64,000 nt of DNA from Candidatus Moraniibacteriota bacterium (lineage in GTDB: Bacteria > Patescibacteriota > Minisyncoccia > Moranbacterales > UBA1568). The translations under genes and the position numbers were made by a program. The notes beneath the pieces are model-generated. The model saw only the letters and a program-made list of their open reading frames with translations, ran no database searches and was not told the DNA's origin. Shown here one piece after another: positions 512 to 44,046 of this stretch; the stretch's first letter is position 1; every line of letters starts with the position of its first letter. The stretch is from NCBI GenBank assembly GCA_052035095.1, contig JBPOHW010000008.1, positions 3,060-67,059 on the forward strand, read 5' to 3'.

Positions 512-724
512 TTGAAACCTATGAAAAGACAACCAAAACCAAAAGAAAAAGCATCAGAGATTCTGACGCTTCAGGAGGCGTGCGAGATTCTGCATTGCCA
601 TCCGAACACGCTTCGCAACTGGGACAACAAAGGATTTTTGAAAGCGATTCGGTTTGGGACACGGGGGGATAGGAGGTATCGGAGGGGAGAGGTGATAGGG
701 ATTCTTGATCGTGGGAAGGAGTGA
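512..724 (+). CDS. small HTH DNA-binding protein, excisionase/AlpA/MerR-like
   Basis: 70 aa; LTLQEACEILHCHPNTLRNWDNKGFLKAIRFG matches the excisionase-family helix-turn-helix. Stop lies 20 bp before the next ATG, which has an AAGAGGA RBS, so the two are operonic. Confidence 0.6.
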   Translation: MKPMKRQPKPKEKASEILTLQEACEILHCHPNTLRNWDNKGFLKAIRFGTRGDRRYRRGEVIGILDRGKE

Positions 725-743
725 TTCTTACAAAGAGGATAAT

Positions 744-3700
744 ATGAAATGGATCAACGCTAGCGACATCACGAATTGGGCGAATACAAACCAAAGACAA
801 TGTCAGGATACATTGCCGGAGTTGGTGCGTCGTCTTATTTTGGCTCACACCGTAAACGCCGTTGATAAATTTGATTTCCCCAGCGGCGATAGCGTCGCTA
901 CCGGTGGATGGGATGGTCGTCTTAAGACACCTGTTGTTTCGCCATTCTTTCCAAGCAGCCATTCCGGCTGGGAAATCGGAACTGAAAAGTCAGCTCAAAA
1001 AAAAGCAGAAGCAGACTATACAAAGCGAAGTGCGGATCCGTTAGGAATGGTACTCAATGAGACAACGTTTGTTTTTGTTACTCCACGATCGTTTCCAAAA
1101 CGTGCAAACTGGCAAAGCACAAAACAATCCACCAACACATGGAAAGATGTCAAAGTTATTGCCGCTGATGGATTAGAGCAATGGCTTGATAATACGCCAG
1201 CCGTTGCTTCGTGGTTTGCCCGTAAGATCAGCAAGGTCGTCTCGAATGGTATTCGGGATATTGAGGCTGTTTGGGAAGAGTGGTCGATAGGAACGAAGCC
1301 GGTGATGACACCAGCTCTCGTAATAGGTGGACGCACGACAGACGTCGAAGCCATTCAGAAATGGATCGCCGAAGCGCCGAGAATTCTTGAGGTACGAGGT
1401 GATCATCCAGATGAGGCATTTGCTTTTCTTTATGCTTCCATTGCAATGCTCCCCGAGACTGAAAGAGCACAGACGTTGGCTCGATGTTTAGTTGTTGAGA
1501 ATATCGGCGAGTTACGGGAATTAACCCAAGCTTTTCAAAATTATCCACTAATCATCGCTGCACCCGGCGAATGTATCAACGCCGCTTCTCTCGCTGTTTC
1601 CAAAGGCCACCATGTATTTATAAGCATGAACGCAACAGTTATTGGTTTTAGGGATATTCTTCGACTAGCTCGGCCGCAACGCGGTGCGGTAGAAAATATT
1701 TTACATGAGGGCGGCTTATCAGAAGCTGACGCACAGCGCATGGCCAGGGATTCCGGGCGTAGTATTCCCGTACTTCGCCGACATTTATTTCAATCCAATG
1801 CCGTTAGTGCTCCGGTATGGGCTAATGCCAAATCAGCACGGATACTCTTACCAGTTTTATTTGCCAACGCATGGGATGAGTACAAAGACGGAGATCGCAA
1901 AGTAATAGAGACCCTTTCCGGTATGAGCCATGACGACTTTGTTAAAGCTCTCACCCCTTTTTTATCTGTAGACGATTCTCCCATTCGCAAGGTTGGTAGT
2001 GTTTGGATGATCAAGTCTCCCTTGGACGCATGGTTTCTTCTCGCGCCACATCTTACACAGGATTCCTTAAAACTTTTTGAGCAGTCTTTATTGGGCGTCC
2101 TCACAAAGACAGATCCAAAATACGAATTGGAGGCGGACAAGCGATGGGCAGCTGCAATATATGGTAAATCAAATGCGTATTCTGAATGGCTTCGGAGTGG
2201 CTTTGTTGAATCGTTGGTGCTTCTTACCGTTTTCGGCAATCGCTCCCCACAAGTCCCATCCACACAGACGTTTGCGGATCATGTTGTCAAACAAGTATTT
2301 GCCACAGCGGATAAATGGGAGGCATGGGCTTCGATAAAGGACGCAACCCCATTATTTTCAGAAGCCGCACCGGATACATTCATGGAGGCGGTCGAACAAG
2401 GTATCGCAAAAACCCCGACTATCTTCCAAGAATTAATGAAGGATAGTGGGAGTGTATTTGGAGAGTGTCATCATTCCGGTCTTCTTTGGGCACTTGAGAG
2501 TATAGCGTGGAGTCAAGATTATTTTGCGCGAGCTGTAAACGTTTTGGTGGAGTTAGCCAATATAGATCCAGGCGGCAAATGGAGCAATCGAGCAATAAAT
2601 AGTATTAAAAACGTTTTCTTGCCACGTTTTCCGCAAACATACGCTACACCGGAACAACGTCTTGCGGCTTTGGATTCCCTTATCGCCAAATTTCCTAAAA
2701 AAGTTTGGGAATTCTCGCAAGGTTATTACAGTGGCGGAAGTTTTAGTGAATCACATCGCTTTCGTTGGCGCGACGCCGGTGGCAATCGCCGCGGATTGGA
2801 GCCGGAAGATAATGAGAACAATCGCGAATATCTCAATGCTCTCCTCCCCAAATTAATTGATCTTGCTGTTGCAAAAGAAAATCTCATAGCTTCTGCCGAT
2901 GAATTCACACAACTGCCGGACGATATACAGGAGCGATTACTTGGTGTACTTGAAAAAACAGATCCCGCTACTTTTTCAAAAGATGAACGTGCAAAGCTTC
3001 TGCAATGTATCCGAGAGGCATTGAATTGGACAAATAGCTACGGTGATGAAGATCGTCGCAAACAAGTGCCAGCTCTTAATCGAGTCTTGGAAAGATTCAC
3101 GCCGGAGGATGTGATTGAGCGTGTGGGTTGGTTATTGGGCAATCCGTGGCCACGGTTACCACAAGGAGAGCCTAAACAATATGACGCCAAAGATACAGCT
3201 GTTAAAACGGCGCAACAAGAAGCCGCACGCGAGGTACTGGATAAAGCGTCTTTGGATGAAATTTTTAAATTTGCCGGTACGATTCAGTATCAGGGAATTC
3301 TCGGTCATTCTCTCGCAAAAGCGGTGCGTGATGAAAAAGAGGATAGTACTGTGTTAGATGGCATATTGTCCCATATTACTGATATGCCGATTCTCATTCG
3401 GGGATACGCTGATGGCCGAGTTGAAGTTGCCGGGCCCGGTTGGATAGATACGCAGATCGAGAGAATGAAAACAAAAGGAAACTATTCGCCGCAGGCATGT
3501 GCGCTTCTGTATTTTGGTATACCAGAGGGTGCATCTACATGGTCGGCAGTTTCCGCCCATGGCAAAGATGTTGAGAGTACATATTGGAAGCAAGCAAGCG
3601 GATTCTCACAGACCAGTAAAGCAGATGATACTCCCATTGCCGTTGAAAAGTTATTGGATGTTAAACGACCGGAGGCCGCACTTCAAATTGCTGGTGATCC

Positions 3701-4532
3701 CCAAGTATCTATTCCAAGTGCGTTACTCCAACGATTGCTCCAAGAGCTTCTGATGATGGAAGATAAAAAGCTTCGTGCTGGAGTAATGGAAGAATTTCAT
3801 TTGGGGCACGTATTCAATCAGCTGTACGAAAAGAACGAACTATCAATTGAAGAAATGGCAAAATTAGAATGGCCATTTGCCGCACTCTTTGAGGAACTCA
3901 AGCAGTACACTTCTCATCCAATGGCACTTCATCGTGTTCTACAAAAAGATCCTCAATTTTTCTCCCAACTTATTACATTCATCTACAAACGAGATGATCA
4001 TGCGCCGGATTCTACTCGTGGCGATGTAGATGAGGAAACGGCGGAGCGACGCGCGCGCGTCGCTCATGAAGTCTTGAATTCTTGGTATCTCATACCCGGG
4101 TTAAAAGAGGACGGTACGCTTGATGAAAAAGAACTTACCGAATGGGTTGAGGCGGCACGCAAACAATGCACAGAAACCAATCATATAATAGGGTGCGATT
4201 TGCAGATTGGCTTCATGTTTGCTCATATACCGGGAGATCCCGACGGCACATGGCCACACGTTGGTGTTCGCAACCTTATAGAGCGCCTAAACAACGAAAC
4301 TATTGATCGGCATATTCAAAATGAGATTTATAATAGTCGCGGCGTTGTTTCAAAGAGCATCAATGACGGAGGTAAACAAGAGCGAGCACTTTCTGAAAAG
4401 TATAAAAAAATGAGCGAAGCCGTTAATTCAAAATGGCCACGTACCGCCGCCATGCTTCGCTCGATAGCTAAATCTTACGAACAACAAGCCAAGAGCGAGG
4501 ATATTGATTCAGATTTATATGATGTACGATAG
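744..4532 (+). CDS. large hypothetical protein, about 1262 aa, no recognisable catalytic motif, predicted mostly alpha-helical
   Basis: Uninterrupted 3.8 kb ORF. ATG at 744 is preceded by AAGAGGA. It follows the HTH gene and ends at a bidirectional terminator. No Walker, HxH, radical-SAM or other motif seen by eye. Confidence 0.7.
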   Translation: MKWINASDITNWANTNQRQCQDTLPELVRRLILAHTVNAVDKFDFPSGDSVATGGWDGRLKTPVVSPFFPSSHSGWEIGTEKSAQKKAEADYTKRSADPLGMVLNETTFVFVTPRSFPKRANWQSTKQSTNTWKDVKVIAADGLEQWLDNTPAVASWFARKISKVVSNGIRDIEAVWEEWSIGTKPVMTPALVIGGRTTDVEAIQKWIAEAPRILEVRGDHPDEAFAFLYASIAMLPETERAQTLARCLVVENIGELRELTQAFQNYPLIIAAPGECINAASLAVSKGHHVFISMNATVIGFRDILRLARPQRGAVENILHEGGLSEADAQRMARDSGRSIPVLRRHLFQSNAVSAPVWANAKSARILLPVLFANAWDEYKDGDRKVIETLSGMSHDDFVKALTPFLSVDDSPIRKVGSVWMIKSPLDAWFLLAPHLTQDSLKLFEQSLLGVLTKTDPKYELEADKRWAAAIYGKSNAYSEWLRSGFVESLVLLTVFGNRSPQVPSTQTFADHVVKQVFATADKWEAWASIKDATPLFSEAAPDTFMEAVEQGIAKTPTIFQELMKDSGSVFGECHHSGLLWALESIAWSQDYFARAVNVLVELANIDPGGKWSNRAINSIKNVFLPRFPQTYATPEQRLAALDSLIAKFPKKVWEFSQGYYSGGSFSESHRFRWRDAGGNRRGLEPEDNENNREYLNALLPKLIDLAVAKENLIASADEFTQLPDDIQERLLGVLEKTDPATFSKDERAKLLQCIREALNWTNSYGDEDRRKQVPALNRVLERFTPEDVIERVGWLLGNPWPRLPQGEPKQYDAKDTAVKTAQQEAAREVLDKASLDEIFKFAGTIQYQGILGHSLAKAVRDEKEDSTVLDGILSHITDMPILIRGYADGRVEVAGPGWIDTQIERMKTKGNYSPQACALLYFGIPEGASTWSAVSAHGKDVESTYWKQASGFSQTSKADDTPIAVEKLLDVKRPEAALQIAGDPQVSIPSALLQRLLQELLMMEDKKLRAGVMEEFHLGHVFNQLYEKNELSIEEMAKLEWPFAALFEELKQYTSHPMALHRVLQKDPQFFSQLITFIYKRDDHAPDSTRGDVDEETAERRARVAHEVLNSWYLIPGLKEDGTLDEKELTEWVEAARKQCTETNHIIGCDLQIGFMFAHIPGDPDGTWPHVGVRNLIERLNNETIDRHIQNEIYNSRGVVSKSINDGGKQERALSEKYKKMSEAVNSKWPRTAAMLRSIAKSYEQQAKSEDIDSDLYDVR

Positions 4533-4559
4533 ATTCAGAAATGACATTCGTTCTAAAAA

Positions 4560-4607
4560 ATATCCGAGCCGTCAACCAAATCGGCTCGGATATTTTTCTT
4601 TGTTTTC
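4560..4607. terminator. bidirectional rho-independent terminator between convergent genes
   Basis: Stem ATATCCGAGCCG, loop of 9 nt, stem CGGCTCGGATAT, then TTTTCTTTGTTTT. A-run on the other side. Confidence 0.55.
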
Positions 4608-4613
4608 ATTTTT

Positions 4614-5093
4614 TCATTCACGAATACCAATAACCTTGATCAGCGATAACACCTCTCCGATTTTTACTTCTCTCACCTCACCGACAGACGCGCCCATAAG
4701 CGGAGCCACGAAAGGCGCGGCGTAGGAAAATTCGTTCGGGTCTGTTTTTTCGAGAACCATGTAGCTCCCAACGACGACAACTTTTTCCTCGTGAGTATCC
4801 GTGTTCTGTATTGTGACTTTTGATCCGAGAGAGACATGCTTCGCGTGAACTGACGGCTCAACTATTTCAGCCCGTGCGTAAACTTTTTTCAATTCTTCGA
4901 GCGTACTGGCAAGCCTTTTTCTTTCCCGATCGGCTTCTTCAAAACCGTAGTTGTCATGCCACGTTTCCGAGCTCTGATGCGACATTTCCCCAACTTCAAA
5001 ACCAACCGTTTTCAGATTGTTTTTGAGCGCGTCGATATTTTTCTCAAGCGCCAAATAATCTTTTCGAAGAAAAAGGAATGATGCGTCTTTCAT
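4614..5093 (-). CDS. greA: transcription elongation factor GreA
   Basis: 159 aa. N-terminal coiled coil and C-terminal FKBP-like domain (GSKVTIQN...VVVVG...PLMGASVGEV) typical of GreA/GreB. Confidence 0.85.
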   Translation of the reverse strand: MKDASFLFLRKDYLALEKNIDALKNNLKTVGFEVGEMSHQSSETWHDNYGFEEADRERKRLASTLEELKKVYARAEIVEPSVHAKHVSLGSKVTIQNTDTHEEKVVVVGSYMVLEKTDPNEFSYAAPFVAPLMGASVGEVREVKIGEVLSLIKVIGIRE

Positions 5094-5617
5094 ATTGAAG
5101 ACTGTTCAATCTCAAGCATGAGAGCGACATATCCCTTTCGAATAATATTATCGCTTTGAATCCCGAGACTTACAAGAAGATTCATTATTTTTTCCTCTAT
5201 ATTTTCTCGACTCTCTTCATCGCCTCGCCCTTCGATCTCAACAAAGACTCCGAGATTTTCTATTTCATCAACATTGATTTCAAAATCTTCAAGACGATAG
5301 CTTGCTCGGCGTTTCTTGATTTCAACCACCTTTACATAGCCGCTCCCAAGAAGAAGCTGTTGGAGACCGTCGGAATCAGTGAGCGGAATATCAATATCCG
5401 GCCACGCGGTATCGTCGCCCAGAGCCTTGCCCTTGAACGTTAGTAATGACCCGTTTTCCTTCCGCCGAATACGCAAAATGAGCGAGCGATCTCTGTCGCT
5501 TTCATGGCGAAGATAAAAATCATGTTCGTTTGACGTTCCCCTGTGCTCTGCTTGTGTCGCCAAGGCGTTCCTTATTGCGTCGGGATCGTCAACGCTTGCC
5601 CGGAGCTCTATTTCCAT
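5090..5617 (-). CDS. CYTH-domain protein (triphosphate tunnel metalloenzyme, class IV adenylate cyclase / thiamine-triphosphatase fold)
   Basis: 175 aa with MEIELRA...E.E start and acidic/basic strand pattern of the CYTH fold. Its stop overlaps the greA start by 4 nt. Confidence 0.7.
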   Translation of the reverse strand: MEIELRASVDDPDAIRNALATQAEHRGTSNEHDFYLRHESDRDRSLILRIRRKENGSLLTFKGKALGDDTAWPDIDIPLTDSDGLQQLLLGSGYVKVVEIKKRRASYRLEDFEINVDEIENLGVFVEIEGRGDEESRENIEEKIMNLLVSLGIQSDNIIRKGYVALMLEIEQSSI

Positions 5618-5714
5618 AAATATGGCTTTACTTGAGGGAATGTTAGCGCATTTTTCTCAAAAAGAAAAGGCTAGCGCGTTGCGTTAGCCTCTGGTTTGTT
5701 GTGAGCTTTCTTTC

Positions 5715-6671
5715 CTACAGTTCTTTGCTCAATTCTTGAGCAATAGGGTGAGAAAAGTAGGCGTGAATCGGAAGAGAGAATGGCGGACCATCGCGGTGTA
5801 CGCAGTTTCGTACCATGAGCATTCCACGTTCCATTTCAAGTCTCGGACCGTACGCGAATTCATAGCACCCGCCATATATCCTCAGTTCGCAATTGGCGCA
5901 CATGCCTTCCAAAAAATGTGGCTGGATGAGTTTCAATTTGAAGGCAAACCCGTCTTCACAGCGCATATCAATGGAACAGCTCGAGCGTCCCCGAATGACA
6001 GACGCCCGCGTCGGAGTTGCTCCAAGCGTTTGGCACGCTCTTGCGAGAGAGGCATACGAGATTTCCGGAATTTCCAGCACGTTCATGAGACGCCACGAAA
6101 TATCTCTGTGTCTCACAAAGTCAGCAAGCGCGATCGCCGGCTGTTCCGTTTCGCCAATGCATGTATTGATCTTGAGACGAACCTTTCCATTGAGAGTCTC
6201 AATGAGATTGATTTGTTTCTCAAGCGCCTTTTTGCCCCACGCCGCATCTTTGGGCGGTGACATTATCTTCCCCAATTCCGCTGGGTCAAGAGTGTGAACG
6301 CTCATGTTGAGCTCATCGAGTCCCGACCATATGCACTCGAAATATCGCGAGTGCTTTGCCTGTCCGTTCGTTGTCATCTTCACTGTGAATCCCAAGCTCT
6401 TTGCCTTCACAATGAACTGGGTGATCTCGGGATGAATTGATGGCTCACCTCCGGTGAAATGCACTTCGGTAAATCCGAAGCGATCACGGAAGCGTACAAG
6501 CACATCGGAAAACTGCTTGTCATTCCGAATCGGTTGCGATGAGGGGTTGCCTTCCATGTGACAGAAATTGCATGTCCACTGGCACGGCACATGAAGCTTC
6601 ACGCGGAGGCTGTTGAGACGAGTCGTCTCTACTTTTCCCTGCGAAAGCAATTCTTCAAAAACATCATACAT
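5715..6671 (-). CDS. radical SAM enzyme, MoaA-like, with C-terminal auxiliary Cys cluster
   Basis: CQWTCNFC (CX3CX2C), FTGGEP, TTNG and C-terminal CANCELRIYGGC (CX2CX7C) resembling the MoaA auxiliary-cluster motif CxxCNRLR. Start is 2 nt after the kinase stop. Confidence 0.8.
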   Translation of the reverse strand: MYDVFEELLSQGKVETTRLNSLRVKLHVPCQWTCNFCHMEGNPSSQPIRNDKQFSDVLVRFRDRFGFTEVHFTGGEPSIHPEITQFIVKAKSLGFTVKMTTNGQAKHSRYFECIWSGLDELNMSVHTLDPAELGKIMSPPKDAAWGKKALEKQINLIETLNGKVRLKINTCIGETEQPAIALADFVRHRDISWRLMNVLEIPEISYASLARACQTLGATPTRASVIRGRSSCSIDMRCEDGFAFKLKLIQPHFLEGMCANCELRIYGGCYEFAYGPRLEMERGMLMVRNCVHRDGPPFSLPIHAYFSHPIAQELSKEL

Positions 6672-6673
6672 GA

Positions 6674-7249
6674 TTATCGCTCCTGTAAAAGCAATGACAC
6701 TTGCGCCTCGACTTGCTCCGCCGAGAGGTGATCGGTTTCAAGCACAAGCGACCATTGATGAGAATCCATGAAAGCCTTCTGCGCTCGATCAAGCAATCCG
6801 ACAGACTGCTCGATACGCTGATCATAGTCCTGCGATCCATCTCGCTTGTTTCTCCTTTCGGTTCTCGTTTTCGACGTAGCCGTAAGGAGTACGGAAACCG
6901 TCGACCAGAGAATGGGCAATTTTTCGGTATTTACAGAAGATACATCTACGCCAAGCACATGGTGCATGACGAGAGTCGAGTGAATATACCGATCAATAAC
7001 AACGCTCCTCCTCAAATCGATATCCGATCGGATTTTTCTCTGAACGGCAATAACCGAAGTAAGATAGTAGAAAAACCGAGTGTTTGAATCATCCAAAGAC
7101 TCTATCTCTTTGCGAATTGTTGAAAGAGGCGGTTGCGGCGTGTAGAGATATCGGAAACCGAGTTTTGAAGCGATGGCTTTGGCAAGGGTTGTTTTACCAA
7201 CACAATCCACACCCTCTACAACCAGAATTACCGGACTGGCATTTTGCAT
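6674..7249 (-). CDS. thymidylate kinase family nucleotide kinase (TMK-like)
   Basis: P-loop VVEGVDCVGKTT and DRY motif (VVIDRYIHST) typical of the dTMP kinase family; 191 aa. Confidence 0.75.
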   Translation of the reverse strand: MQNASPVILVVEGVDCVGKTTLAKAIASKLGFRYLYTPQPPLSTIRKEIESLDDSNTRFFYYLTSVIAVQRKIRSDIDLRRSVVIDRYIHSTLVMHHVLGVDVSSVNTEKLPILWSTVSVLLTATSKTRTERRNKRDGSQDYDQRIEQSVGLLDRAQKAFMDSHQWSLVLETDHLSAEQVEAQVSLLLQER

Positions 7250-7264
7250 GAGCGTTCTCCGCTA

Positions 7265-7762
7265 TCATTGAATTTCGCTGATTTCCCATGCTCCTTTGAG
7301 CACAGAACATTCGATCTCTTCTCCGTTTCCTTTTCCGAAAAGCGCTTTGCCAATCGGAGAAGATGGGCTTATCGCTGAAACTTTTTCACCCCCATAAGAG
7401 GGGTGCAAAAAAACTCCGCCACCTGCTCCTTCAGAAACGAGAAGAAACAGTTTTCTTTCCGCAGTATCAATATTCTCAATAGCCACTACAGAGCCGATAG
7501 AAACCTGATTGGAAACATCAGCATCTCTCTGGAGAAGGCTCTCAAGTAAAGCGAGAACAGTTTTTGCTTCAAGCAATCGCTTATTCTGCCCGCCCGCGAG
7601 ATATTGAGCTTCTTCGAGAAAAGTATCATAGCGAGAAATCATCGCGCCTTCCGCTTCTTGCGCGTCTTTGAGTGACACTTGTCTCGCTTGCTCGGTTCTT
7701 TCGATCTCTTCTCTCTTGTTCGCGATAATCTGCGCGAACAAGATTTTTGCTGTTTCGTGCAT
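7265..7762 (-). CDS. GreA/GreB-family transcription factor paralog
   Basis: 165 aa. Coiled-coil N-terminus plus FKBP-like C-terminal domain (GSVVAIENIDTAERKLFLLVSEGAGGG...SPIGKAL). It is the second Gre homolog in the same operon. Confidence 0.7.
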   Translation of the reverse strand: MHETAKILFAQIIANKREEIERTEQARQVSLKDAQEAEGAMISRYDTFLEEAQYLAGGQNKRLLEAKTVLALLESLLQRDADVSNQVSIGSVVAIENIDTAERKLFLLVSEGAGGGVFLHPSYGGEKVSAISPSSPIGKALFGKGNGEEIECSVLKGAWEISEIQ

Positions 7763-8178: not shown

Positions 8179-8535
8179 TTGCGGTATAGTCAAACTTTTA
8201 TGGAGAAGAAAACTTTTATTGTAGGCTCAGTGCTATTGGTTACGATGGCAGTGCTTTTTGACGGCTTTATGAGCACAGCATACCTATTAGGAAGTTTCGT
8301 CTTATGTTGGGCAGTTTATTATGGAGTTAGATATACAGGGTTAACTCGAGCAAAGAGTATTAATCCAAAACAAATAGTTCACATGGCGCTTGCAACTTCA
8401 ATCCTGATTCTGACAGGTATCACATTTATTTTCGGAACAGGAATCAACTTAATTGTCTATGCCGTCTGGCTCGTCTTCTTCTATTGGCACGAGTTGTCTT
8501 CCTTGAAACTAAAAAAAACTGCTTTGATTGAATAG
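8179..8535 (+). CDS. small integral membrane protein
   Basis: 118 aa with three or four hydrophobic helices; no known motif. Confidence 0.45.
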   Translation: MRYSQTFMEKKTFIVGSVLLVTMAVLFDGFMSTAYLLGSFVLCWAVYYGVRYTGLTRAKSINPKQIVHMALATSILILTGITFIFGTGINLIVYAVWLVFFYWHELSSLKLKKTALIE

Positions 8536-8635
8536 TTTTTTACTTCATTGACATCAAATGATTCTTCATCTTTTTTGGATTATTGATTTATAAATGTGGA
8601 ATCGAGACACAATTATACTTTGAAATGAGGACATT

Positions 8636-9205
8636 ATGATTGATACTACTCTTTACATTTTTGTTATTTATCCACTGGGCATCTTCATAGGCTTCGCCTC
8701 TTTTACGATGATATGGATGCCTATTCTAATTGGGATACCAATGGCCACCTACTGGTCATTGAAAGGGTGTGTACGATATAGAAGCATATTCTCCTATATA
8801 CCAAGTATTATATTTGGTTTTGTTTTATTCACACTTATTGGCTTTTTCTTTTTGAGAATTCTTCCTGCAATTGGAGAGAACAATGGATTTTATGTGGCGC
8901 AAATAATCGGCAGTCTATTTGCACTATTTTATTGCTTAAAGAAAATGGGCAGGCGTGATGTTCAACTTGATTTTTGGACGAAAATGTTGAAGAACAAATA
9001 CATGATCTACGAACACCCTATAATTGCCGAGAAGCTTCAGTTTTTATTCGAAGAAAGATTCGGAGAAGATGCCAAAAAAATGGCTACTCAACTTATGATG
9101 GAAACGAAAGCGAAGAGAATTGATGAGCTTATAGAAAAAAGAGAAGCGTTAAAAAAGCAGATTCTTGAAAAAGTTGAAAAAAAGAAGCAAGACGGCGAAT
9201 GGTAA
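8636..9205 (+). CDS. integral membrane protein with charged C-terminal tail
   Basis: 189 aa. Four TM helices followed by a KE-rich tail. Overlaps the next gene by 7 nt. Confidence 0.45.
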   Translation: MIDTTLYIFVIYPLGIFIGFASFTMIWMPILIGIPMATYWSLKGCVRYRSIFSYIPSIIFGFVLFTLIGFFFLRILPAIGENNGFYVAQIIGSLFALFYCLKKMGRRDVQLDFWTKMLKNKYMIYEHPIIAEKLQFLFEERFGEDAKKMATQLMMETKAKRIDELIEKREALKKQILEKVEKKKQDGEW

Positions 9206-9648
9206 GTTCAAACACAAGTATTGTGAAAAACCTCTACCTCGACATTGACGGGGTGATTCTTGATAAACGAGGATGTCCCGCCTACGGCTTGGAAGGTTTT
9301 TTACGCTTTGCAATAGTCCACTTCTCTTGTTTTTGGCTCACGACGCACTGTAGCGGAAATGCGAAACTAACCTTATCCTATCTCACGTCCAAGGTGCCAA
9401 AAGAAGCTTTGGAATTGATGTCAGGCATCCGACCAACCGCATGGAGCCTTTGGAAAACAGAGGCTATAGACTTCACCAAACCATTCTATTGGCTCGATGA
9501 TTATGCCTTTGATGGAGAAAGAAAAGTCTTACGAGAACATAGATGCGAATCCTCCCTTATCTTGATAAATCTTGAGACAAACCCGAAGCAACTGGAGGCA
9601 TTGTGTAAGCAACTGAAAGAGACATTTTCAGTGGCTACCTCGCCATAA
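9199..9648 (+). CDS. HAD-superfamily phosphatase-like protein
   Basis: LYLDIDGVILD matches HAD motif I (DxDGV) and FYWLDD resembles motif IV; 149 aa. Confidence 0.5.
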   Translation: MVSSNTSIVKNLYLDIDGVILDKRGCPAYGLEGFLRFAIVHFSCFWLTTHCSGNAKLTLSYLTSKVPKEALELMSGIRPTAWSLWKTEAIDFTKPFYWLDDYAFDGERKVLREHRCESSLILINLETNPKQLEALCKQLKETFSVATSP

Positions 9649-9654
9649 TCCGTT

Positions 9655-9765
9655 CCATCCGCTCACAAATTACCTCCAGCCCATTGCCACATTCGAGCCA
9701 TTTTGAGAGAATACGGGGGCAGAAATTGTTCCCATGTGTACCCCATCGTCCCAGCAAAATAAATT
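9655..9765 (+). repeat. about 95 bp intergenic repeat, copy 2 of 3
   Basis: Same core as copy 1. Its 3' end abuts the ATG of the next gene. Confidence 0.8.
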
Positions 9766-9767
9766 GT

Positions 9768-10178
9768 ATGCTTTACAAAGTTATTCTTGTTTCTCTTCTT
9801 CATAGAAGAAACAAAAGTGAGATATTGCTCATTAAAAGAAACCGTGAACCAGAATATGGTAAATGGTCGCTTTCTGGTGGCACAGGTGCATTAGAAAAAG
9901 AGGCAGATCCCAAAAAAGCAATTTTCATGGAAGTACTCGGGGATTTCTCGACAAACATCCTTGATCCAAAGCTTTTTTCCATAAAGTATGCCAATTTTTC
10001 AGAGCCGACCCTCCATTTTTATTTTGAAGGCGAATTAGAAAGTGAACCAAAAATTCAAGATATGAAAACAGTGAAAGAACTTGGATGGTTTGTGCCAAGA
10101 GAAATTTTGAAAATGGACATCGCCTTTCAAGATATTGATAAAGAAGCCGTTAAACAATTTATGAAGAATTCAAAATAG
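9768..10178 (+). CDS. Nudix-fold protein with degenerate Nudix box
   Basis: ILLIKRNREPEYGKWSLSGG...GALEKE has the GX5E part of the box but the REx2EE part is degenerate. Start moved to ATG 9768 because upstream codons lie inside the repeat. Confidence 0.5.
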   Translation: MLYKVILVSLLHRRNKSEILLIKRNREPEYGKWSLSGGTGALEKEADPKKAIFMEVLGDFSTNILDPKLFSIKYANFSEPTLHFYFEGELESEPKIQDMKTVKELGWFVPREILKMDIAFQDIDKEAVKQFMKNSK

Positions 10179-10180
10179 TT

Positions 10181-10207
10181 CCAACTTCGTCCCACAGTCC
10201 CAGCTGA
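10181..10207 (+). promoter_or_regulatory. short conserved leader motif TTCYAACTTCGTCCCACAGYCCCAGC, copy 1
   Basis: Also present at 10713-10740 and, reverse-complemented, at 16651-16674. Each copy is 8-15 nt upstream of an ATG. Confidence 0.5.
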
Positions 10208-10215
10208 CAAACTCT

Positions 10216-10713
10216 ATGAGCGATAAAATAGAACTTGTTGATTACAAAGGGAATCCTACGCAGGTTTCTTGCTTGGGTTGCGCCCGAGAAAACGGCGAAA
10301 TGGAAAGAGTAGGCACCATACTCACCACTAAACATTTCGACGCTCACCAGGACTTTGAAATTCCTATCCCTGGCTTTATCATTATTTCTTCGAGGCGACA
10401 TTTGCAAAGCATCGATGAGTTTACTGATGAAGAAAAGCTAGATTTTATCGATACTCTTATTGCGGTGAGGACTGGGATGAGAAAGACTCTTGATATTGAT
10501 GTTGTCTATCTCATTCAAGAAGAAGATACTTCGCATCATTTCCACATTTGGGTATTCCCTCGTTATGATTGGATGGCAGAGAAATTTGGCAAGAAAACAC
10601 CTTCACTCCAACCGATTATGGAATATGCTCGTGAAAATCTAAAGACTATAGAAAATCTTAAGAAAGTTGAAGAAGCAGTCAATAAACTGAAGACTCATTT
10701 TGAAGTAAATTAG
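10216..10713 (+). CDS. HIT-family hydrolase
   Basis: Histidine triad HFHIWVFPR (HxHxHxx); 165 aa. Confidence 0.8.
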   Translation: MSDKIELVDYKGNPTQVSCLGCARENGEMERVGTILTTKHFDAHQDFEIPIPGFIIISSRRHLQSIDEFTDEEKLDFIDTLIAVRTGMRKTLDIDVVYLIQEEDTSHHFHIWVFPRYDWMAEKFGKKTPSLQPIMEYARENLKTIENLKKVEEAVNKLKTHFEVN

Positions 10714-10748
10714 TTCTAACTTCGTCCCACAGCCCCAGCACATATTCT

Positions 10749-11306
10749 ATGGTTACTATCCCTGAACAATACGCTTCTCTTATCCACATCAAATCACTTT
10801 CGTGGAAAGAAGTGTTTGACACATGGCGAAATCTGGAAGCATGGCAAGAGTCTTGGAAAGAGCATTGGACTGAACGAGGATTCAACTCATGGGATGAATG
10901 GCGCGAAGCATATGCGGCCCCACTTCATCCGGAAACACTTTCCTGGGAAATGTATCATATTACTGATCCCATTAAAGACCTCCCCCTTTTTTATGGCACC
11001 CCCACAAAAGGATGGATTGATAAAGCCTACGAGGGAGAAATAACAAAACAACTGAAAGACATTTCCAATTTACCTATTATCACTGAGAACCAGAAGGTTC
11101 TCACTATCAAACAAGCGTTTCCGAAAGAAACGATGCTTACAGGCATCGTTCATGAGGGAAAAATCGTTCTCATTGAGGGAATGCACCGTGCTAACGCACT
11201 CGCCACATGGAATCCTAAGACCCCCTTTGTTGGAAACGTCACAATCGCTCTTGTTCAGTGGGATAGCTCGATTCCGGCTCTCGGAGGAAATTACAAGGTT
11301 AAATAA
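10749..11306 (+). CDS. hypothetical protein (Trp-rich N-terminus)
   Basis: 185 aa ORF preceded by the conserved leader motif; no recognised domain. Confidence 0.45.
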   Translation: MVTIPEQYASLIHIKSLSWKEVFDTWRNLEAWQESWKEHWTERGFNSWDEWREAYAAPLHPETLSWEMYHITDPIKDLPLFYGTPTKGWIDKAYEGEITKQLKDISNLPIITENQKVLTIKQAFPKETMLTGIVHEGKIVLIEGMHRANALATWNPKTPFVGNVTIALVQWDSSIPALGGNYKVK

Positions 11307-16697: not shown

Positions 16698-17309
16698 CTA
16701 TTTAATCTTTGCCAATGTCTCTAAAACGCTTTTAATCTGCTGATCACTGACTTTTGCATCTTCCATAGCACTCAAGAGGCTACCGAGCTGTTGTTCATTA
16801 ATTTTGACGTTGTTCGAGGTATTTAGAATCTGCTCTAGTTGATTGTTATCAATCTTTACGTCGTTTCGAACTTCTATGTCCTGTGTAGTTAATACAGGAA
16901 TCAAAATAGCAAGAACCGAAATTGCTATTGCTATAAACGCTGAAATTTTTGCATCCTTAGCATTTTTCCGTGCAAGTCTCAGTTCCTGATAGTCAATAAA
17001 ATTAAAATGGGACTCCAGACTTATGACATATTTATTTCTCCCGTCGGCGTAGTTGTTGTAGTCGAGGATATAAAGAGCCAAAAAGAGTGTGTCTGGATTT
17101 ACTGGCCCAGCACCAGTAACACCGATGCTGTAATGGTTCTTATGAGCGATCTGTAAGTAGGTTTTAAGAACGTCTTTTTCTCTATCGCTCAAGGACAGTT
17201 CTGTGGCTTCTGTAACCTCTGAAACACTAAACCCTTGAGGATGATTTAGTCCCCATTTAATAGCTCTGATAAGAAAGCTTTCACCAATATTTTCTTCACT
17301 AGATGGCAT
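16698..17309 (-). CDS. hypothetical protein with C-terminal TM helix and coiled-coil tail
   Basis: 203 aa, AT-rich. Sits 9 bp downstream of the OLD-family nuclease gene, probably co-transcribed. Confidence 0.5.
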   Translation of the reverse strand: MPSSEENIGESFLIRAIKWGLNHPQGFSVSEVTEATELSLSDREKDVLKTYLQIAHKNHYSIGVTGAGPVNPDTLFLALYILDYNNYADGRNKYVISLESHFNFIDYQELRLARKNAKDAKISAFIAIAISVLAILIPVLTTQDIEVRNDVKIDNNQLEQILNTSNNVKINEQQLGSLLSAMEDAKVSDQQIKSVLETLAKIK

Positions 17310-17318
17310 AGTAGCAAC

Positions 17319-19151
17319 TTAAAATCTCTCCAATAACTTAGTGAAAAGTGTTCCTACATTGGTAGTTGTTGTGCTACTTAAGTTTATCTGACTACTATCC
17401 TTCTGGCATTCTTCCAGAAACTTCTTGGCAAGCAATACTTTATCTAGCTTACTTTTTTTGATATACGTGGAATTAGATTCAGCGTAAGACTTACTTTCGT
17501 CTTTGAGTACGAATTTCTTAAAGTCTTCTAGTGAAAAAACATCTTCTATACTTCCCTCAGATTCTAATACAGCCAAAATTAAATCCTTAGTTACTAACCA
17601 AGTATCTTTCAAATTTCTCTCCCCATCTCTTTTCCCCTGATCTTTATCGTATAGGTATAAAACTTTTGTACCCCAGCCATGCAGGATAGTTCCAACGAAA
17701 GGCATATTCCCAGCTCCGCCACCAAAGATAAAGTTTAACTTATTTTCATTCATCAGTTTTTTAAATGCGTTTAAGTAATAAAGATCTGATGGACCTTCGA
17801 CTACTACGTTATTAACTTTATCCAAGGAAGCAACACCGGAGTTTAATTCTAGACCTATAGCCGTCAGGATGGGGGTTAATGTTTCTTTGTCTGCTAAAGC
17901 ATGAACTTTATTTTCAATTTTTGTGCCAGACTTTTTTGTTCGATGGATTAGTCTAATCTGATTTAGTTTATCTGCTTCCAAAAGATAGGGTGAGTGTGTA
18001 GAGAATACTAACTGCACTTCCTCTGCCGAGGCCTCAAGTTTTCTTAAAATATCCTCCTGTGCTTTTGCGTGTAGAAATAATCCAGGCTCATCTATCAAGA
18101 TGATATTTGGAACATCCTCACTTGCACGTGCAGACACTTTAATATAAAAGGCTAGATGCCACTGCCGTCCCTTACTCCTCAAGCTTGGTTCATACAAATG
18201 CCCGTCTTCTTCAACCCAAAAGTAAACATCTTCTGAATCCCAATCTACGCTTAAGTTAGTAATGTCTTGAGTCCAGAATTTCTCGTAGTCTTTATTTATT
18301 TTGATGTTCAAATCCTTCTTGTGTTTTTGTTTATCACGGGCTTGAGAATTTTTGATTGTATCTACGTCTAGGTTGCTTATGACTGCTAAATCTTGAACCC
18401 ATTTGTTAGTTTCAAGCTCTGCAAACGGTATTTTATTTGGAAAAACATCTTCAAATGAATTAAAGAATACAAAATTTGGTATCCATTTTTTGAGAGCTTC
18501 TAAGAATTTGGTCTCTGAATTAATTAATTTTTCAGCACCATCCATATCTCCGCCGATCTCCGATAATAATTTCAAAAAAATACCACCATCTTTTTCATCT
18601 ATCTGCGCAACATTAGGTGAGGTAGCAGTTTGAAATGTGTTAAATAAGGCCTTACTATTTTCAAAATTAGAAAATTCAAAATCAAACAAAGTCCCTCCTA
18701 ATTGCGTATGCTTTACATGTAGTCCTTTTATTTTGTCCCACTTATTTATGATTGATTTCTCCAGTCTCTCCAAATCATTTTTTCCAAAAATATCATCCTC
18801 TAGAGTTTCTTTCCCGAACCTATAACTATCTGGAAAAGTCTTAATAACCTCGAGCTCGATATTTTTAGTAGCCTTCTTTGTACTAGCTATTTTTTCTAGT
18901 ATATTTTTGAGAATAGATGCCTCAACTACAAAAGTTACGGAAATTTCTGGTATTGCCTCAGGTGTTTTTATTGGAATAGCAGATTCTCTAATTTTCTTTT
19001 CCGTATCAAAATCTTCTAAAGCCTCGAGAATTGAGGTTTTACCTGATTCATTTTTTCCAGCAAGGATCGTAACTGTATCAGTTAGATAACAATCGCCACT
19101 GTCGGTTATGGATTTAAAATTCTTAATCCGAAATTTCTTAAGCTTTAGCAT
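17319..19151 (-). CDS. OLD-family / PARIS-like ABC-ATPase plus TOPRIM nuclease
   Basis: N-terminal ABC ATPase (Walker A AGKNESGKTS; ILIDEPGLFLH Walker B/D-loop). C-terminal TOPRIM (VVVEGPSDLYYL, FGGGAGN, LYLYDKD = DxD). 610 aa, AT-rich. Confidence 0.8.
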   Translation of the reverse strand: MLKLKKFRIKNFKSITDSGDCYLTDTVTILAGKNESGKTSILEALEDFDTEKKIRESAIPIKTPEAIPEISVTFVVEASILKNILEKIASTKKATKNIELEVIKTFPDSYRFGKETLEDDIFGKNDLERLEKSIINKWDKIKGLHVKHTQLGGTLFDFEFSNFENSKALFNTFQTATSPNVAQIDEKDGGIFLKLLSEIGGDMDGAEKLINSETKFLEALKKWIPNFVFFNSFEDVFPNKIPFAELETNKWVQDLAVISNLDVDTIKNSQARDKQKHKKDLNIKINKDYEKFWTQDITNLSVDWDSEDVYFWVEEDGHLYEPSLRSKGRQWHLAFYIKVSARASEDVPNIILIDEPGLFLHAKAQEDILRKLEASAEEVQLVFSTHSPYLLEADKLNQIRLIHRTKKSGTKIENKVHALADKETLTPILTAIGLELNSGVASLDKVNNVVVEGPSDLYYLNAFKKLMNENKLNFIFGGGAGNMPFVGTILHGWGTKVLYLYDKDQGKRDGERNLKDTWLVTKDLILAVLESEGSIEDVFSLEDFKKFVLKDESKSYAESNSTYIKKSKLDKVLLAKKFLEECQKDSSQINLSSTTTTNVGTLFTKLLERF

Positions 19152-19567: not shown

Positions 19568-19635
19568 ATACTACAAACGTATATACGGGAAATCAAGAAA
19601 AAGCAGTCTCTCGTGAGACTGCTCGTTCCGTCGTG

Positions 19636-19709
19636 CGGGGACGACCGGGCTCGAACCGGCGACCTTCTGCGTGACAGGCAGACGCTCTAACCAACTGAGC
19701 TACGCCCCC
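19636..19709 (-). tRNA. tRNA-Asp (GTC)
   Basis: Cloverleaf: GGGGGCG acceptor, GCTC-AGTTGGTTA-GAGC D arm, anticodon loop CTGTCAC, T loop TTCGAGC, discriminator G. Confidence 0.9.
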
Positions 19710-19740
19710 AAACATTCAATTTTTTCTCTCTGATTTTCCT

Positions 19741-19828
19741 TTGGTACCAGGGGCGAGATTCGAACTCTTGATCCGCCTCAGGCGGACTTATGCGTTCAAT
19801 ATCCCACCTTACCCCCGTACCATTTTTG
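19741..19828 (-). pseudogene. degenerate tRNA-like fragment (3' half shared with the disrupted tRNA at 19955-20058)
   Basis: Contains CATAAGTCCGCCTGAGGCGGATCAAGAGTTCGAATCTCG, 39/40 identical to the 3' half of the neighbouring tRNA-like copy. 5' half unrelated, T stem mismatched, ends form an 11-bp inverted repeat. Confidence 0.5.
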
Positions 19829-19902
19829 TAGCAGGGGCGAGATTCGAACTCGCGACCTACGGCTTATGAGTCCGTCGCTCTAACCAACTGAGCTACCCTG
19901 CC
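19829..19902 (-). tRNA. tRNA-Met (CAT), elongator-type or Ile2-type
   Basis: GGCAGGG acceptor, anticodon loop CTCATAA, T arm GCGAG-TTCGAAT-CTCGC, discriminator A. Confidence 0.85.
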
Positions 19903-40941: not shown

Positions 40942-43881
40942 TTACAAATACTTCCCCGTCAAGCTCTTCTTGCATTTCTTAAGATCGTTTGGCGTGCCGG
41001 CGAAGACGATTTCGCCACCCAGGGCGCCTCCGTCCGGCCCCAGGTCAATCACCCAGTCGGCGTGACGAATTACATCGGAATTGTGTTCAACCACCAAGAC
41101 GGTATTGCCTTTGTCAACCAGCGTGTCGAGAATAATGAGGAGTCGGCGAATATCTTCAAAGTGAAGCCCGATCGTCGGCTCATCCAAGATATAAAGCGTT
41201 TTGCCGGTCGCCTTCCGCGCGAGTTCGGTCGCGAGCTTCACGCGTTGCGCCTCGCCGCCCGAGAGATTGGTTGCACTCTGTCCCAAGACGAGATACCCCA
41301 AGCCAACCTCATCGAGCGCGCGCAACTTCTCCTCGACCGCCGGCTGATCAAAGAAAAATGCGCGCGCTTCCGATACTGTCATATCGAGCACTTCGGAAAT
41401 ATTCATACCGCGATATTCAATCGCGAGCATCCGCTCATTGTAGCGCCTTCCACCACAAGTCTCGCACGCGATATACCGATCCGGCAAAAGATACATTTCG
41501 ATTTTTTTGAGACCGCTCCCCTGACACATCTCGCACCGACCGCCCCGCATATTGAAGCTGAAGTGGCTCGCCGAAAATCCCGCCTTTTCCGCTTCCGCCG
41601 TTCCTGCAAAGAGGTCGCGAATCGGCGTCCACGCGCCCGTGTAGGTGACGGCATTCGAGCGCGGCGTTCGTCCGATCGGATCCTGATTGACCACGATCGC
41701 TTTGTCGAGACGATCCAGACCGCGTATTTCGCGATGCGCCCCGACCGAAGCGCGCGCGCCGTAAAAATTTTTGAGGAGCGCCCGCGCGAGAATATCCGTA
41801 ATAAGAGTCGATTTGCCCGATCCGGAAATACCGGACACCACCGTAAACGTTTCAAGCGGGATGTGCGCGTCGATATTTTTGAGATTATGTTCCGTCGCTC
41901 CCAGAATTGAAAGCGTCTGACGAGATTTCCGAATCGATTTTTTTTCAGACACCTTGCGGCGCCCGGAAAGATACGCGCCGGTTTCCGTTTTTGACTTCCA
42001 GAGTTCCTCCGACGTCCCCGAAAAAAGCACCTCTCCACCCTCGCGCCCGGCGCCGGGTCCCATATCAACGACCCAATCCGACGCCTTCATAATCGACGGA
42101 TCGTGTTCGACGACCACAAGCGAATTGCCGTTTCCCTGAAGCGCGCGGAGCGTCTCGATGAGGCGCTCGGTATCACGATTGTGAAGACCGATCGAGGGCT
42201 CGTCCAAAATATAGAGAACACCAGAGAGTTCGGATTTTATCTGCGTCGCGAGTTTGATGCGTTGCGCCTCGCCCCCCGAGAGCGTCTCGGCGCTCCGAGA
42301 AAGTTCCAAGTACCCCAGTCCGACACGTCGAACCGCGCCGAGCCGATCCGCGATTTCCCGAAAAAGCGGCTGCGTCGTATGATCCGACTCCGAAGCGGGC
42401 GCGCCCGTTATTTTGCCGAGAAAGTACGCTTCCAAACGATCAATCGGCATATCGGAAAATTGATCAATACTTTTGCCGTCAAAGAAAACGGAGCGAGCCT
42501 CTTTTCGAAGACGATTCCCCTCGCATGAGGGACATGGCGAGGACGACATAAACTTTTCGATACCGGTGCGAATATGATCGGATTTTGTTTCACGGTACTT
42601 CCTCTCAAGCATAGGGATCACGCCGGAAAAGCGTTCCTTCTCAGGACGGCCAGACTCCGGCTCACCATAGAGAATACTCTGGATTTCGGACTTCTTGAGT
42701 CGCGATACCGGAATATCGATTCGAATTTTTTTTCGATCGGCGAAATTTCGCAGAAGCTCAAATCCGCCGAGAGTTGCTTCACGTTTCCCATTCCCGTTTT
42801 TGTGTTCACTGCCGTTTCCATTCCCATCAAGCGAGTGCTCTTCCTCATGATCTTCACACTCACGAGACGGCGAACACGGCGTTCGACTCCACGGACGAAT
42901 CGCCCCCTCGAGAAGGGAGAGTTTTTTGTTCGGAAGCACAAGATCGGGATCGATCTCGAGTTTCTTGCCCAATCCGGAACAAGCAAGACAAGCTCCTTCC
43001 GGATTATTGAAAGAGAACATATGCGGCGTCATATCCGGAACGCGCGTCCCGCACGAGGCGCAGAGGTATTCTCGGCTGAAATGCCGCTCTTCGGACTCGT
43101 TCACAACAAGGGAGAGTGTTCCATGCCCCAATTTGAATGCCGTCTCGATCGAATCGAGCACGCGTTCGATATCGGGACGTTTGGAACTCAACACAATGCG
43201 ATCGATCACCGCGTCCATTTCGGAAAGGAGCATATCGGAAGCGTGCGGAAGCGCCTCTGAAATCTGCATAATTTGATTGTGAAACCGTACGCGCGCGTAC
43301 CCGGACTGCAACAGTGTTTGCAGCGCCTCTTTCTCGGTTTTTTTGCGCGTCTGCTCCATCTTGGTCAAAAAAACCACCCGCGTCCCATCCGGAAACGCGA
43401 GAATCTCCCGAAGAATATCCCGCGCGTCCCGCCGATCGAGGCGCTTCCCGCACGCGGGACAGTGCGGAATGCCAACCTTGGCAAAGAGAACCCGAATATA
43501 GTCATAGGCCTCCGTGAGCGTCCCCACGGTCGAACGCGGCGAGCGCGCGATGCTTTTTTGGTCAATGGAAATCGAGGGACTCAAATTGGAAATGCGGTCC
43601 ACTTCCGGTCGATCGAGCGCTTCCATAAAGTGCCTCGCGTAGGACGAAACGGACTCCATATATCGCCGGTTCGCCTCGGCGTGAATGGTATCGAAGGCGA
43701 GTGACGACTTGCCGGATCCGGAAAGCCCGGTAATCACCACGAATTTCTCGCGCGGAATATCCACGTCAATTCCTTTCAAATTATTCGTACGCGCGCCGCG
43801 AATCGCGATTACGGCACCAGAAGATGGATTGGGCACCTTTCGAGAAACAGATCCGCGAGAACCTCGGGAATTTTTTGGCAT
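40942..43881 (-). CDS. uvrA: excinuclease ABC subunit A
   Basis: Two ABC modules ([14 protein letters not shown] and [10 protein letters not shown]), zinc fingers CPACGK/CASCG and signature LSGGEAQR x2. Start trimmed to MPKNS at 43881. Confidence 0.9.
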
Positions 43882-44046
43882 AGACGCGGTACAAAAAAAT
43901 GAATCGAAAAAAGGCGCATTGCCAACCAGTGTATCGCGTTTTTTTGAATTTGTCACCCTGTCAACAATTTCAGACGAGTGGCACCATATCTTGCGGCTTT
44001 TGGCACCCTCGGCTATACTCCGCCGAAGAACAATTCTCTCCCATTT

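Follow-up and report, generated by a model that had tools for sequence, protein, structure and literature searches.

The subject of this analysis is a 64,000-nucleotide stretch of the genome of a Candidatus Moraniibacteriota bacterium (assembly GCA_052035095.1, contig JBPOHW010000008.1, forward-strand positions 3,060 to 67,059; hereafter the window), which encodes near its left end a small helix-turn-helix (HTH) protein and, directly behind it, a protein of 1262 amino acids. A preliminary description of this locus, made from the sequence alone, took the large protein to be a giant orphan without recognizable domains and the pair to be a possible undescribed defense-related system under an excisionase-family regulator. 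By analogy with known receptors, we propose that the 1262-residue protein is probably an Avs-type (antiviral STAND) receptor, a pattern-recognition protein that consists of a single polypeptide and acts against viruses. Structure models and comparisons with relatives reveal three modules (a nuclease-fold domain, a STAND/NOD module and an α-solenoid), a Walker A motif that is absent throughout the family, invariant residues in the nuclease domain, a gene that moves on its own, and an upstream regulator that varies from locus to locus. The idea of an undescribed defense-related system therefore survives in part: the protein would be a receptor of a known immune kind for which no family model exists, and it is neither an orphan nor domain-less. 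By sequence, the absence of recognizable domains does hold, as the protein matches no Pfam or NCBIfam model and no entry in the PDB; it is in the predicted structure that the nuclease, the NOD and the solenoid appear. Both open reading frames (ORFs) lie where the preliminary description placed them, and the features of the locus are as follows.

521-724 (ATG; alternative start TTG at 512), plus strand: small HTH gene, 67 amino acids from ATG 521, Pfam HTH_17, predicted operon regulator
734-739, plus strand: Shine-Dalgarno sequence AGAGGA of the large gene, read from the sequence, 4 nucleotides before ATG 744
744-4532, plus strand: gene for the 1262-residue Avs-like protein, with predicted nuclease, degenerate NOD and α-solenoid (from the ORF, the homolog alignment and the models)
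744-1238, plus strand: residues 1-165, predicted PD-(D/E)xK restriction-endonuclease-fold domain, presumed effector
1311-2051, plus strand: residues ~190-436, predicted STAND/NOD module (nucleotide-binding-type α/β domain, helical domain, winged helix)
1398-1421, plus strand: residues 219-226, GDHPDEAF, degenerate pseudo-P-loop (from the secondary structure of the model and the family alignment)
2061-4529, plus strand: residues ~440-1262, predicted all-α HEAT/ARM-like solenoid, presumed sensor (from the models and Foldseek)
2481-2912, plus strand: residues 580-723, helical and conserved, weakly but colinearly similar to Avs8A (PADLOC PD-Lambda-4_A)
4555-4602, both strands: bidirectional intrinsic terminator, common to the large gene and the convergent viperin-like operon

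Predicted architecture and probable kinship with Avs receptors

AlphaFold2 models of residues 1-620 (pLDDT 89.4, pTM 0.78) and 561-1262 (pLDDT 89.2, pTM 0.75), each built on a 30-sequence alignment, divide the protein into a nuclease domain (residues 1-165), a NOD (residues ~190-436), and a helical arm that continues into a solenoid (residues ~440-1262). This predicted order is the arrangement of nuclease-bearing Avs receptors, which carry an N-terminal effector domain, a central STAND/NOD fold made up of a nucleotide-binding domain, a helical domain and a winged helix, and a C-terminal repeat sensor of at least ~400 residues. In the models, these three places are taken by the nuclease-fold domain, by a module with all three parts of the NOD fold, and by a solenoid of ~800 residues.

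The preliminary description saw no nuclease motif in the protein, yet suspected a cryptic PD-(D/E)xK fold in its first 150 residues. The suspicion proved sound, and the negative is not quite right: the first 165 residues are predicted to adopt this fold, in agreement with fold matches, and contain invariant D57, E77 and K87. Residues 1-140 of the model follow the classic αβββαβ core order, with D57 at the start of strand β2 and E77 within β3. Invariant across the family are G55-x-D57-G58, S74-x-W76-E77, K87-A88, R95 and F109-VFVTPR115. The motif is non-canonical, in that the position two residues after E77 (residue 79) is Gly or Ser instead of Lys, with K87-A88 and R95 located on the following helix. 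In this the family differs from the FokI cleavage domain, from Mrr/AF1548 and from MspJI/AspBHI, where a (D/E)xK motif stands in place of E77-x-G/S.

The long helical repeats that the preliminary description supposed are present in the models, spanning residues ~440-1262. The C-terminal half is wholly helical, and Foldseek matches it to the HEAT/ARM solenoids of CAP-G, transportin-3, CAND1 and importins; the ~800-residue all-α solenoid is not of the classical TPR type. A region-wise comparison finds the N-terminal nuclease domain most conserved, with a mean pairwise identity of 0.45 in residues 1-170 versus 0.26 in residues 801-1000, the least conserved part of the solenoid. As far as sequence conservation goes, this pattern fits a fixed catalytic effector joined to a diversifying sensor, and not a decaying relic.

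The best structural match in the PDB is EcAvs4 (PDB 8DGF; Foldseek probability 1.0, E 3e-6, 738 aligned columns), likewise a nuclease-STAND-repeat-sensor receptor, which tetramerizes upon binding a phage protein. No sequence similarity to Avs4 or Avs3 is detectable, and Avs4 further differs in its canonical, ATP-binding Walker A motif, its TPR-like sensor, which binds portal protein, and its larger size (1541 amino acids). Gao et al. are said to have described the EcAvs4 effector as Mrr-like in 2022.

A second line of kinship leads to Avs8, the new name of PD-lambda-4. In the PADLOC defense library, the sole signal of the 1262-residue protein is to PD-Lambda-4_A (PDLC03991; E 3.6e-5, 19.6 bits), with residues 580-723 aligned to positions 596-747 of a profile of 1283. 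Of 36 diverse members (26-80% identity to the window protein) scanned singly, 19 matched this profile, always weakly (best E 2.8e-6), and no other family recurred; because these matches are colinear and recur across so diverse a set, they point to remote homology with Avs8A and not to chance. Avs8A is a STAND NTPase of ~1283 amino acids with an N-terminal Mrr nuclease and its NTPase at residues ~224-392. It binds HK97-fold major capsid proteins at nanomolar affinity, whereupon its DNase is activated, and it suffices for defense, Avs8B being dispensable. The likeness to Avs8 of E. coli ECOR07 (WP_000963924.1) extends to the nuclease, a NOD at ~200-400, the long helical-repeat C-terminus, the length (~1280 amino acids) and the action of a single protein, and the Avs8A NTPase is colinear with the NOD of the 1262-residue protein.

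The protein nevertheless does not qualify as a member of Avs8, because its profile match is partial and weak (only ~20 bits over ~150 residues are common, short of both a full-length PD-Lambda-4_A match and a passing score), and because Avs8B is absent: the terminator begins 23 nucleotides past the stop codon, the next gene is convergent, and downstream genes differ among loci. Avs8 is also mainly gammaproteobacterial, whereas the present family spans many phyla, and the P-loop of EcAvs8A is intact, with ATP reportedly required. On the last point KpAvs8 stands closer: a 2026 preprint describes degenerate Walker A/B motifs, as found in the 1262-residue family, "suggesting a lack of ATPase activity", yet the protein causes cell death on sensing the major capsid protein. 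According to another preprint, Avs comprises at least 90 families, few of them characterized. By analogy, the present family would be Avs-like in its working and most similar to Avs8.

Taking Avs3, Avs4, Avs7 and Avs8 as guides, we propose that, before activation, the solenoid and NOD of the monomer would keep the nuclease inactive. Binding to the solenoid of a ligand that is conserved and derived from phage (most likely a protein) would free the NOD for oligomerization, which would in turn join nuclease domains, as FokI- and Mrr-type domains require in order to cut both strands. Degradation of phage and host DNA would then result in abortive infection.

Several points weigh against assigning the protein to the Avs receptors. 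First, loss of Walker A removes the very feature that mechanistically defines STAND NTPases, and Avs8A activity is reported to need ATP. Second, the canonical (D/E)xK lysine is absent from the nuclease domain, where catalysis would depend on K87 of the following helix. The link to Avs8 comes solely from ~20-bit partial PADLOC hidden Markov model (HMM) matches, and the Foldseek TM-scores reach only 0.2-0.3, as the alignments extend over several domains. The length of family members is also unusually constant (~1260 amino acids) with few indels, implying less sensor plasticity than in many Avs families. Finally, the survey of gene neighborhoods described below is qualitative and has no matched control.

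The P-loop position across a phylum-spanning family

The preliminary description had also remarked that the protein contains no P-loop, which turns out to be true of the window protein and of the whole family. In the model, the loop between strand 214-218 and helix 222-234, at the place of Walker A in P-loop NTPases, reads GDHPDEA, with E224 and A225 occupying, within one residue, the positions of the Walker A Lys-Ser/Thr pair. GK[ST] is absent at this position from all 73 members recovered with their loci, which come from genomes and metagenomes and reach down to 27% identity; a set of 96 full-length cluster representatives likewise includes no protein with a Walker A there. The consensus of the 73 members is acidic, (G/A)(D/E)xx(D/E)EA, with E224 and A227 nearly invariant. 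The strand equivalent to Walker B, LIIAAPGE, is degenerate and variable across the family, and the functional nucleotide-binding site of Avs receptors, with a Walker A GxxxxGK[ST] and acidic Walker B residues, is thus not found here. Apaf-1, CED-4 and the NB-ARC domains of plant NLRs, by contrast, exchange ADP for ATP at an intact P-loop in the place of the family-wide acidic GDxPDEA. Since Walker A is missing from the 73 members and the 96 representatives alike, we take the loss of the nucleotide site to be ancestral to the whole family; and since an invariant Glu-Ala replaces the P-loop Lys-Ser/Thr, the switch probably operates without ATP binding or hydrolysis.

The family in question is large. 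While sequence searches of Pfam, NCBIfam and the PDB remained empty, whether the query was a single sequence, a profile of 36 members or just the N-terminal domain at E-values up to 10, a word-indexed search returned at least 553 homologs, nearly all of 1260-1266 amino acids and either unnamed or labeled "hypothetical protein", from Moranbacteria, Parcubacteria, Gracilibacteria, Margulisbacteria, Elusimicrobia, Aminicenantes, Bryobacteraceae (Acidobacteria), Gammaproteobacteria and Verrucomicrobia. An HMM of the N-terminal 172 residues, in an exhaustive search, retrieved 3,404 cluster representatives (clusters at 50% identity), 1,496 of them at E ≤ 1e-30, so that the protein can hardly be called an orphan. 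Full-length representatives measure ~1240-1290 amino acids, or ~1330-1380 when N-terminally extended, and the best 150 of the 3,404 all belong to the large-protein family, with no other architecture bearing the N-terminal domain among them. The occurrence of the family at 50-85% identity in the Candidate Phyla Radiation (CPR), Elusimicrobia, Aminicenantes, Acidobacteria, Gammaproteobacteria and Verrucomicrobia indicates horizontal transfer. A viral origin of the family was considered and, as far as the IMG/VR collection goes, rejected, as its contigs contain no relatives.

We put forward a wider proposal with some reserve, as a possibility that falls short of a probable one: that a phylum-spanning clade of NLR/Avs-type immune receptors, with ~3,400 clusters at 50% identity, gave up nucleotide binding when it arose, and that its members would nonetheless still be ligand-triggered nucleases. 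Such a clade would embody a natural, ancient nucleotide-independent STAND switch, present even in CPR genomes of ~1 Mb, with a non-canonical PD-ExG...K active site and interchangeable regulators of HTH or LexA type. STAND and NLR receptors of animals, plants and bacteria are thought to be gated by nucleotides, whereas this family keeps the whole receptor architecture under strong purifying selection while all members examined have an acidic pseudo-P-loop. Should it prove to be an active immune sensor, it would be a natural system in which to study ATP-independent triggering of NOD oligomerization. Defense catalogs would also gain a large unannotated family that has no Pfam, NCBIfam or dedicated PADLOC model, and it would mean that genome-reduced CPR bacteria carry Avs-type immunity, raising the question of the ligand that the sensor recognizes.

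Upstream regulators and competing explanations

The nuclease domain itself suggests a different kind of protein. By fold it is best matched by Type IIS, IIM, IV and ISP restriction enzymes (FokI, BspD6I, MspJI, AspBHI and LlaBIII), restriction-modification genes often adjoin the large gene, and ~12% of members carry an HTH fused directly before the nuclease domain. One could accordingly imagine a DNA-directed restriction-like enzyme in which the solenoid, together with the HTH where one is fused, guides a nuclease of FokI/Mrr/MspJI type to foreign or modified DNA, with the pseudo-NOD as a mere scaffold and no phage protein sensed. We consider this unlikely. Type IV and Type IIS enzymes pair a PD-(D/E)xK nuclease with a domain that recognizes DNA or its modification. 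Here the nuclease fold is predicted, a Pfam scan and profile search detected no SRA-type or other DNA-reader domain, no methylase or helicase module was found, and most members have no HTH. HEAT-like solenoids, moreover, mostly bind proteins, and the NOD-winged helix-solenoid arrangement matches the protein-sensing Avs and NLR receptors.

Two further explanations turn on the small gene upstream. Its product matches Pfam HTH_17 (E 2e-9; 37.8 bits, cutoff 27) and MerR_1 (5e-7), also exceeds the cutoff for MerR, and resembles PADLOC mad1 (1.7e-6); judged by these profiles, it is an HTH_17/MerR-superfamily DNA-binding protein like other small regulators of this group, among them excisionase/AlpA-like proteins. 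Of the AlpA/Xis/MerR-like label given to it before, the superfamily thus stands while the excisionase part appears not to be justified, because the protein scores 22.3 bits against the excisionase model TIGR01764, below the cutoff of 28.8, and because neither an integrase among the scanned neighboring window genes nor flanking att-like repeats were found, with the left side ending at the window edge. Unlike what one would expect of a fixed partner, it is not conserved with the large gene: tblastn finds no homolog of it beside any of 90 related loci, and the nearest relatives with readable context (loci L001-L005, 60-80% identical) have no upstream HTH gene. The notion of a system under an excisionase-family regulator thus finds no support. 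We regard the small protein as probably a transcriptional regulator of the operon, and most likely a local one that restrains a potentially toxic large gene.

Other loci have other regulators. At L023, an unrelated HTH_17 gene (E 6e-14) ends 6 bp upstream of the family member. A LexA/S24-like repressor with Peptidase_S24 and LexA DNA-binding domains (1329-1994) ends 10 bp upstream at L025, and a LexA-like Peptidase_S24 gene ends 28 bp upstream of an 85% identical relative at L087 (3815-4471) and L088 (3775-4431). These LexA-like sequences hint at DNA-damage-induced expression in some lineages. In a branch at ~30% identity, many members have an in-frame N-terminal extension of 70-115 amino acids, mostly an XRE-type HTH, and HTH_17-like in L068, L072 and L078; among the full-length cluster representatives, 12 of 96 carry a fused XRE HTH. 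The simplest reading is that the large gene is often under a local, exchangeable repressor, of which the pairing in the window is one instance, and that the HTH gene is most likely a swappable or dispensable accessory outside the core machine.

The large ORF is open from position 705, and we place its true start at ATG 744, giving 1262 amino acids, because the N-termini of homologs all begin MKWI...; the gap between the HTH stop codon and this ATG is 19 nucleotides. The AT-rich patch noted upstream is real but mild, with a GC content of 0.42 in positions 1-1000 versus 0.45-0.47 within the large gene, and it consists mostly of a divergent minus-strand ORF (2-505) that runs past the left window edge and for which Pfam, NCBIfam and PADLOC give no match. 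The ATG of this ORF (505) lies only 7-16 bp from the HTH start, so that both promoters must overlap coding regions. A consensus promoter scan found no sigma-70-like promoter on the plus strand before position 512, and a repeat search found no convincing operator-like repeats upstream of the HTH gene, where the only inverted repeat is a weak one of 15 nucleotides (73% complementary, 493-507/519-533) that spans both start codons.

The close coupling of the two genes in the window, the membership of HTH_17 in the excisionase/AlpA superfamily, and the integrase, insertion sequence (IS) elements or tRNA that flank some loci could also be read as signs of an addiction module of a mobile element, in which a toxic nuclease and an HTH protein acting as antitoxin-like repressor or excisionase stabilize the island instead of guarding against phage. 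This strikes us as less likely still than a restriction-like enzyme, given that the HTH is absent at most loci, that neither an integrase nor attachment repeats adjoin the window copy, that no conserved partner gene could serve as antitoxin, and that a 1262-residue receptor-type architecture is atypical of toxins in toxin-antitoxin systems. Least likely of all, and very improbable in our view, is a STAND-type signal-transducing transcription regulator akin to MalT, AfsR and LAL proteins, with an HTH output and a catalytically dead nuclease fold that binds DNA or a ligand: STAND transcription factors do join a NOD to a repeat sensor and an HTH, the family does have recurrent fused or adjacent HTHs, and the canonical ExK lysine is absent, but an HTH domain is lacking in at least ~85% of members, conservation is highest in the nuclease-fold domain, with D57, E77, K87 and R95 invariant, and the contexts are variable defense or mobile regions with no conserved regulon.

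Genomic setting

The settings in which family members occur differ in every locus, and no neighbor is conserved. One homolog lies directly after a Type III restriction-modification pair and AbiEii, and the homolog with an S24 repressor adjoins a methylase. Elsewhere the adjoining genes include a Gabija-like OLD/UvrD pair, IS110 and IS21 elements, a tyrosine recombinase and an HsdM-like gene. In the flanks of 41 loci, which hold 132 ORFs, PADLOC, with results counted per family and not per gene, recognizes AbiEi and AbiEii (at least 4 each), MADS genes, AriA-like ATPases and Type II methylases. The patchy distribution and the variable, defense-island context typical of Avs receptors are thus seen here in qualitative terms. 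Of the co-occurrence that the preliminary description proposed to look for, the part concerning the HTH gene is not borne out, while defense-type neighbors do appear at several loci, again qualitatively; the contrary case that it had named, a housekeeping family in conserved synteny, was not encountered. What moves among these variable, defense-rich regions is a cassette of one gene. When the window's HTH protein, divergent ORF and viperin-cluster proteins were compared with the related loci by tblastn, no co-occurrence was found except one weak CYTH match: at L075, a CYTH homolog (10508-11011), 25% identical to that of the window (E 3e-5), lies ~2 kb downstream of a distant member.

In the window, the presence of UvrA (40942-44073), TopA, RelA/SpoT and PhoH2 marks the sequence as chromosomal, and the large gene sits in the lower-GC first ~12 kb. 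The closest named relatives of this UvrA, 60-81% identical, come without exception from Candidatus Moranbacteria, a CPR lineage. The strong bidirectional terminator of the preliminary description is borne out: a perfect 16-bp stem (4556-4571/4582-4597) encloses a 10-nucleotide loop, with an A-run before and a T-run after it, a folding energy of -28 kcal/mol and z = -6.4. A consensus terminator scan overlooked the hairpin at 4556-4597 because of the length of its loop. Converging on the large gene from the other side is a five-gene minus-strand cluster (4614-7762).

4614-5093, minus strand: GreA/GreB-C-like protein
5090-5617, minus strand: CYTH/class-IV-cyclase-like protein
5715-6671, minus strand: viperin-like radical SAM enzyme (PADLOC pVip, 2e-19; NCBIfam viperin model below cutoff)
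6674-7249, minus strand: dTMP-kinase-like protein (PADLOC PDC-M51B, 4e-26; VakA, 1e-15)
7265-7762, minus strand: second GreA-like protein

Judged from these matches, the cluster resembles a prokaryotic viperin system whose CYTH and GreA-like partners are unusual. It is followed on the plus strand, at 8179-11306, by six small ORFs of 118-189 amino acids, several of them membrane-protein-like, with a GC content of 0.36-0.41. A weak NUDIX match (9684-10178) is the one family match among the six, and the five scanned with PADLOC (8636-11306) gave none. Farther along, the minus strand at 16698-19151 encodes a 609-residue OLD/AriA/PtuA/GajA-like ABC ATPase (PADLOC Old, 2e-28; Pfam AAA_15 and AAA_21) and a 202-residue partner with no family match. 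This patch, with a GC content of 0.35-0.37, adjoins tRNA-Asp and tRNA-Met genes (tRNAs 19635-19902) and is probably a second small defense islet. A span of 20 kb contains at least three defense-type loci, in a genome whose total size is probably only ~1 Mb.

Some related loci have features of their own. At L002, a tRNA gene (5819-5907; tRNA-Phe according to ARAGORN, of an atypical 89 nucleotides) ends 94 bp upstream of the family member, which is consistent with insertion at a tRNA-linked island. Directly upstream of two distant members lies a gene for a YgjP-like metallopeptidase of the DUF45/SprT-like kind, at L016 (1425-2153) confirmed by Pfam with an E-value of 4e-54, and at L055 (21-374) recognized only by eye.

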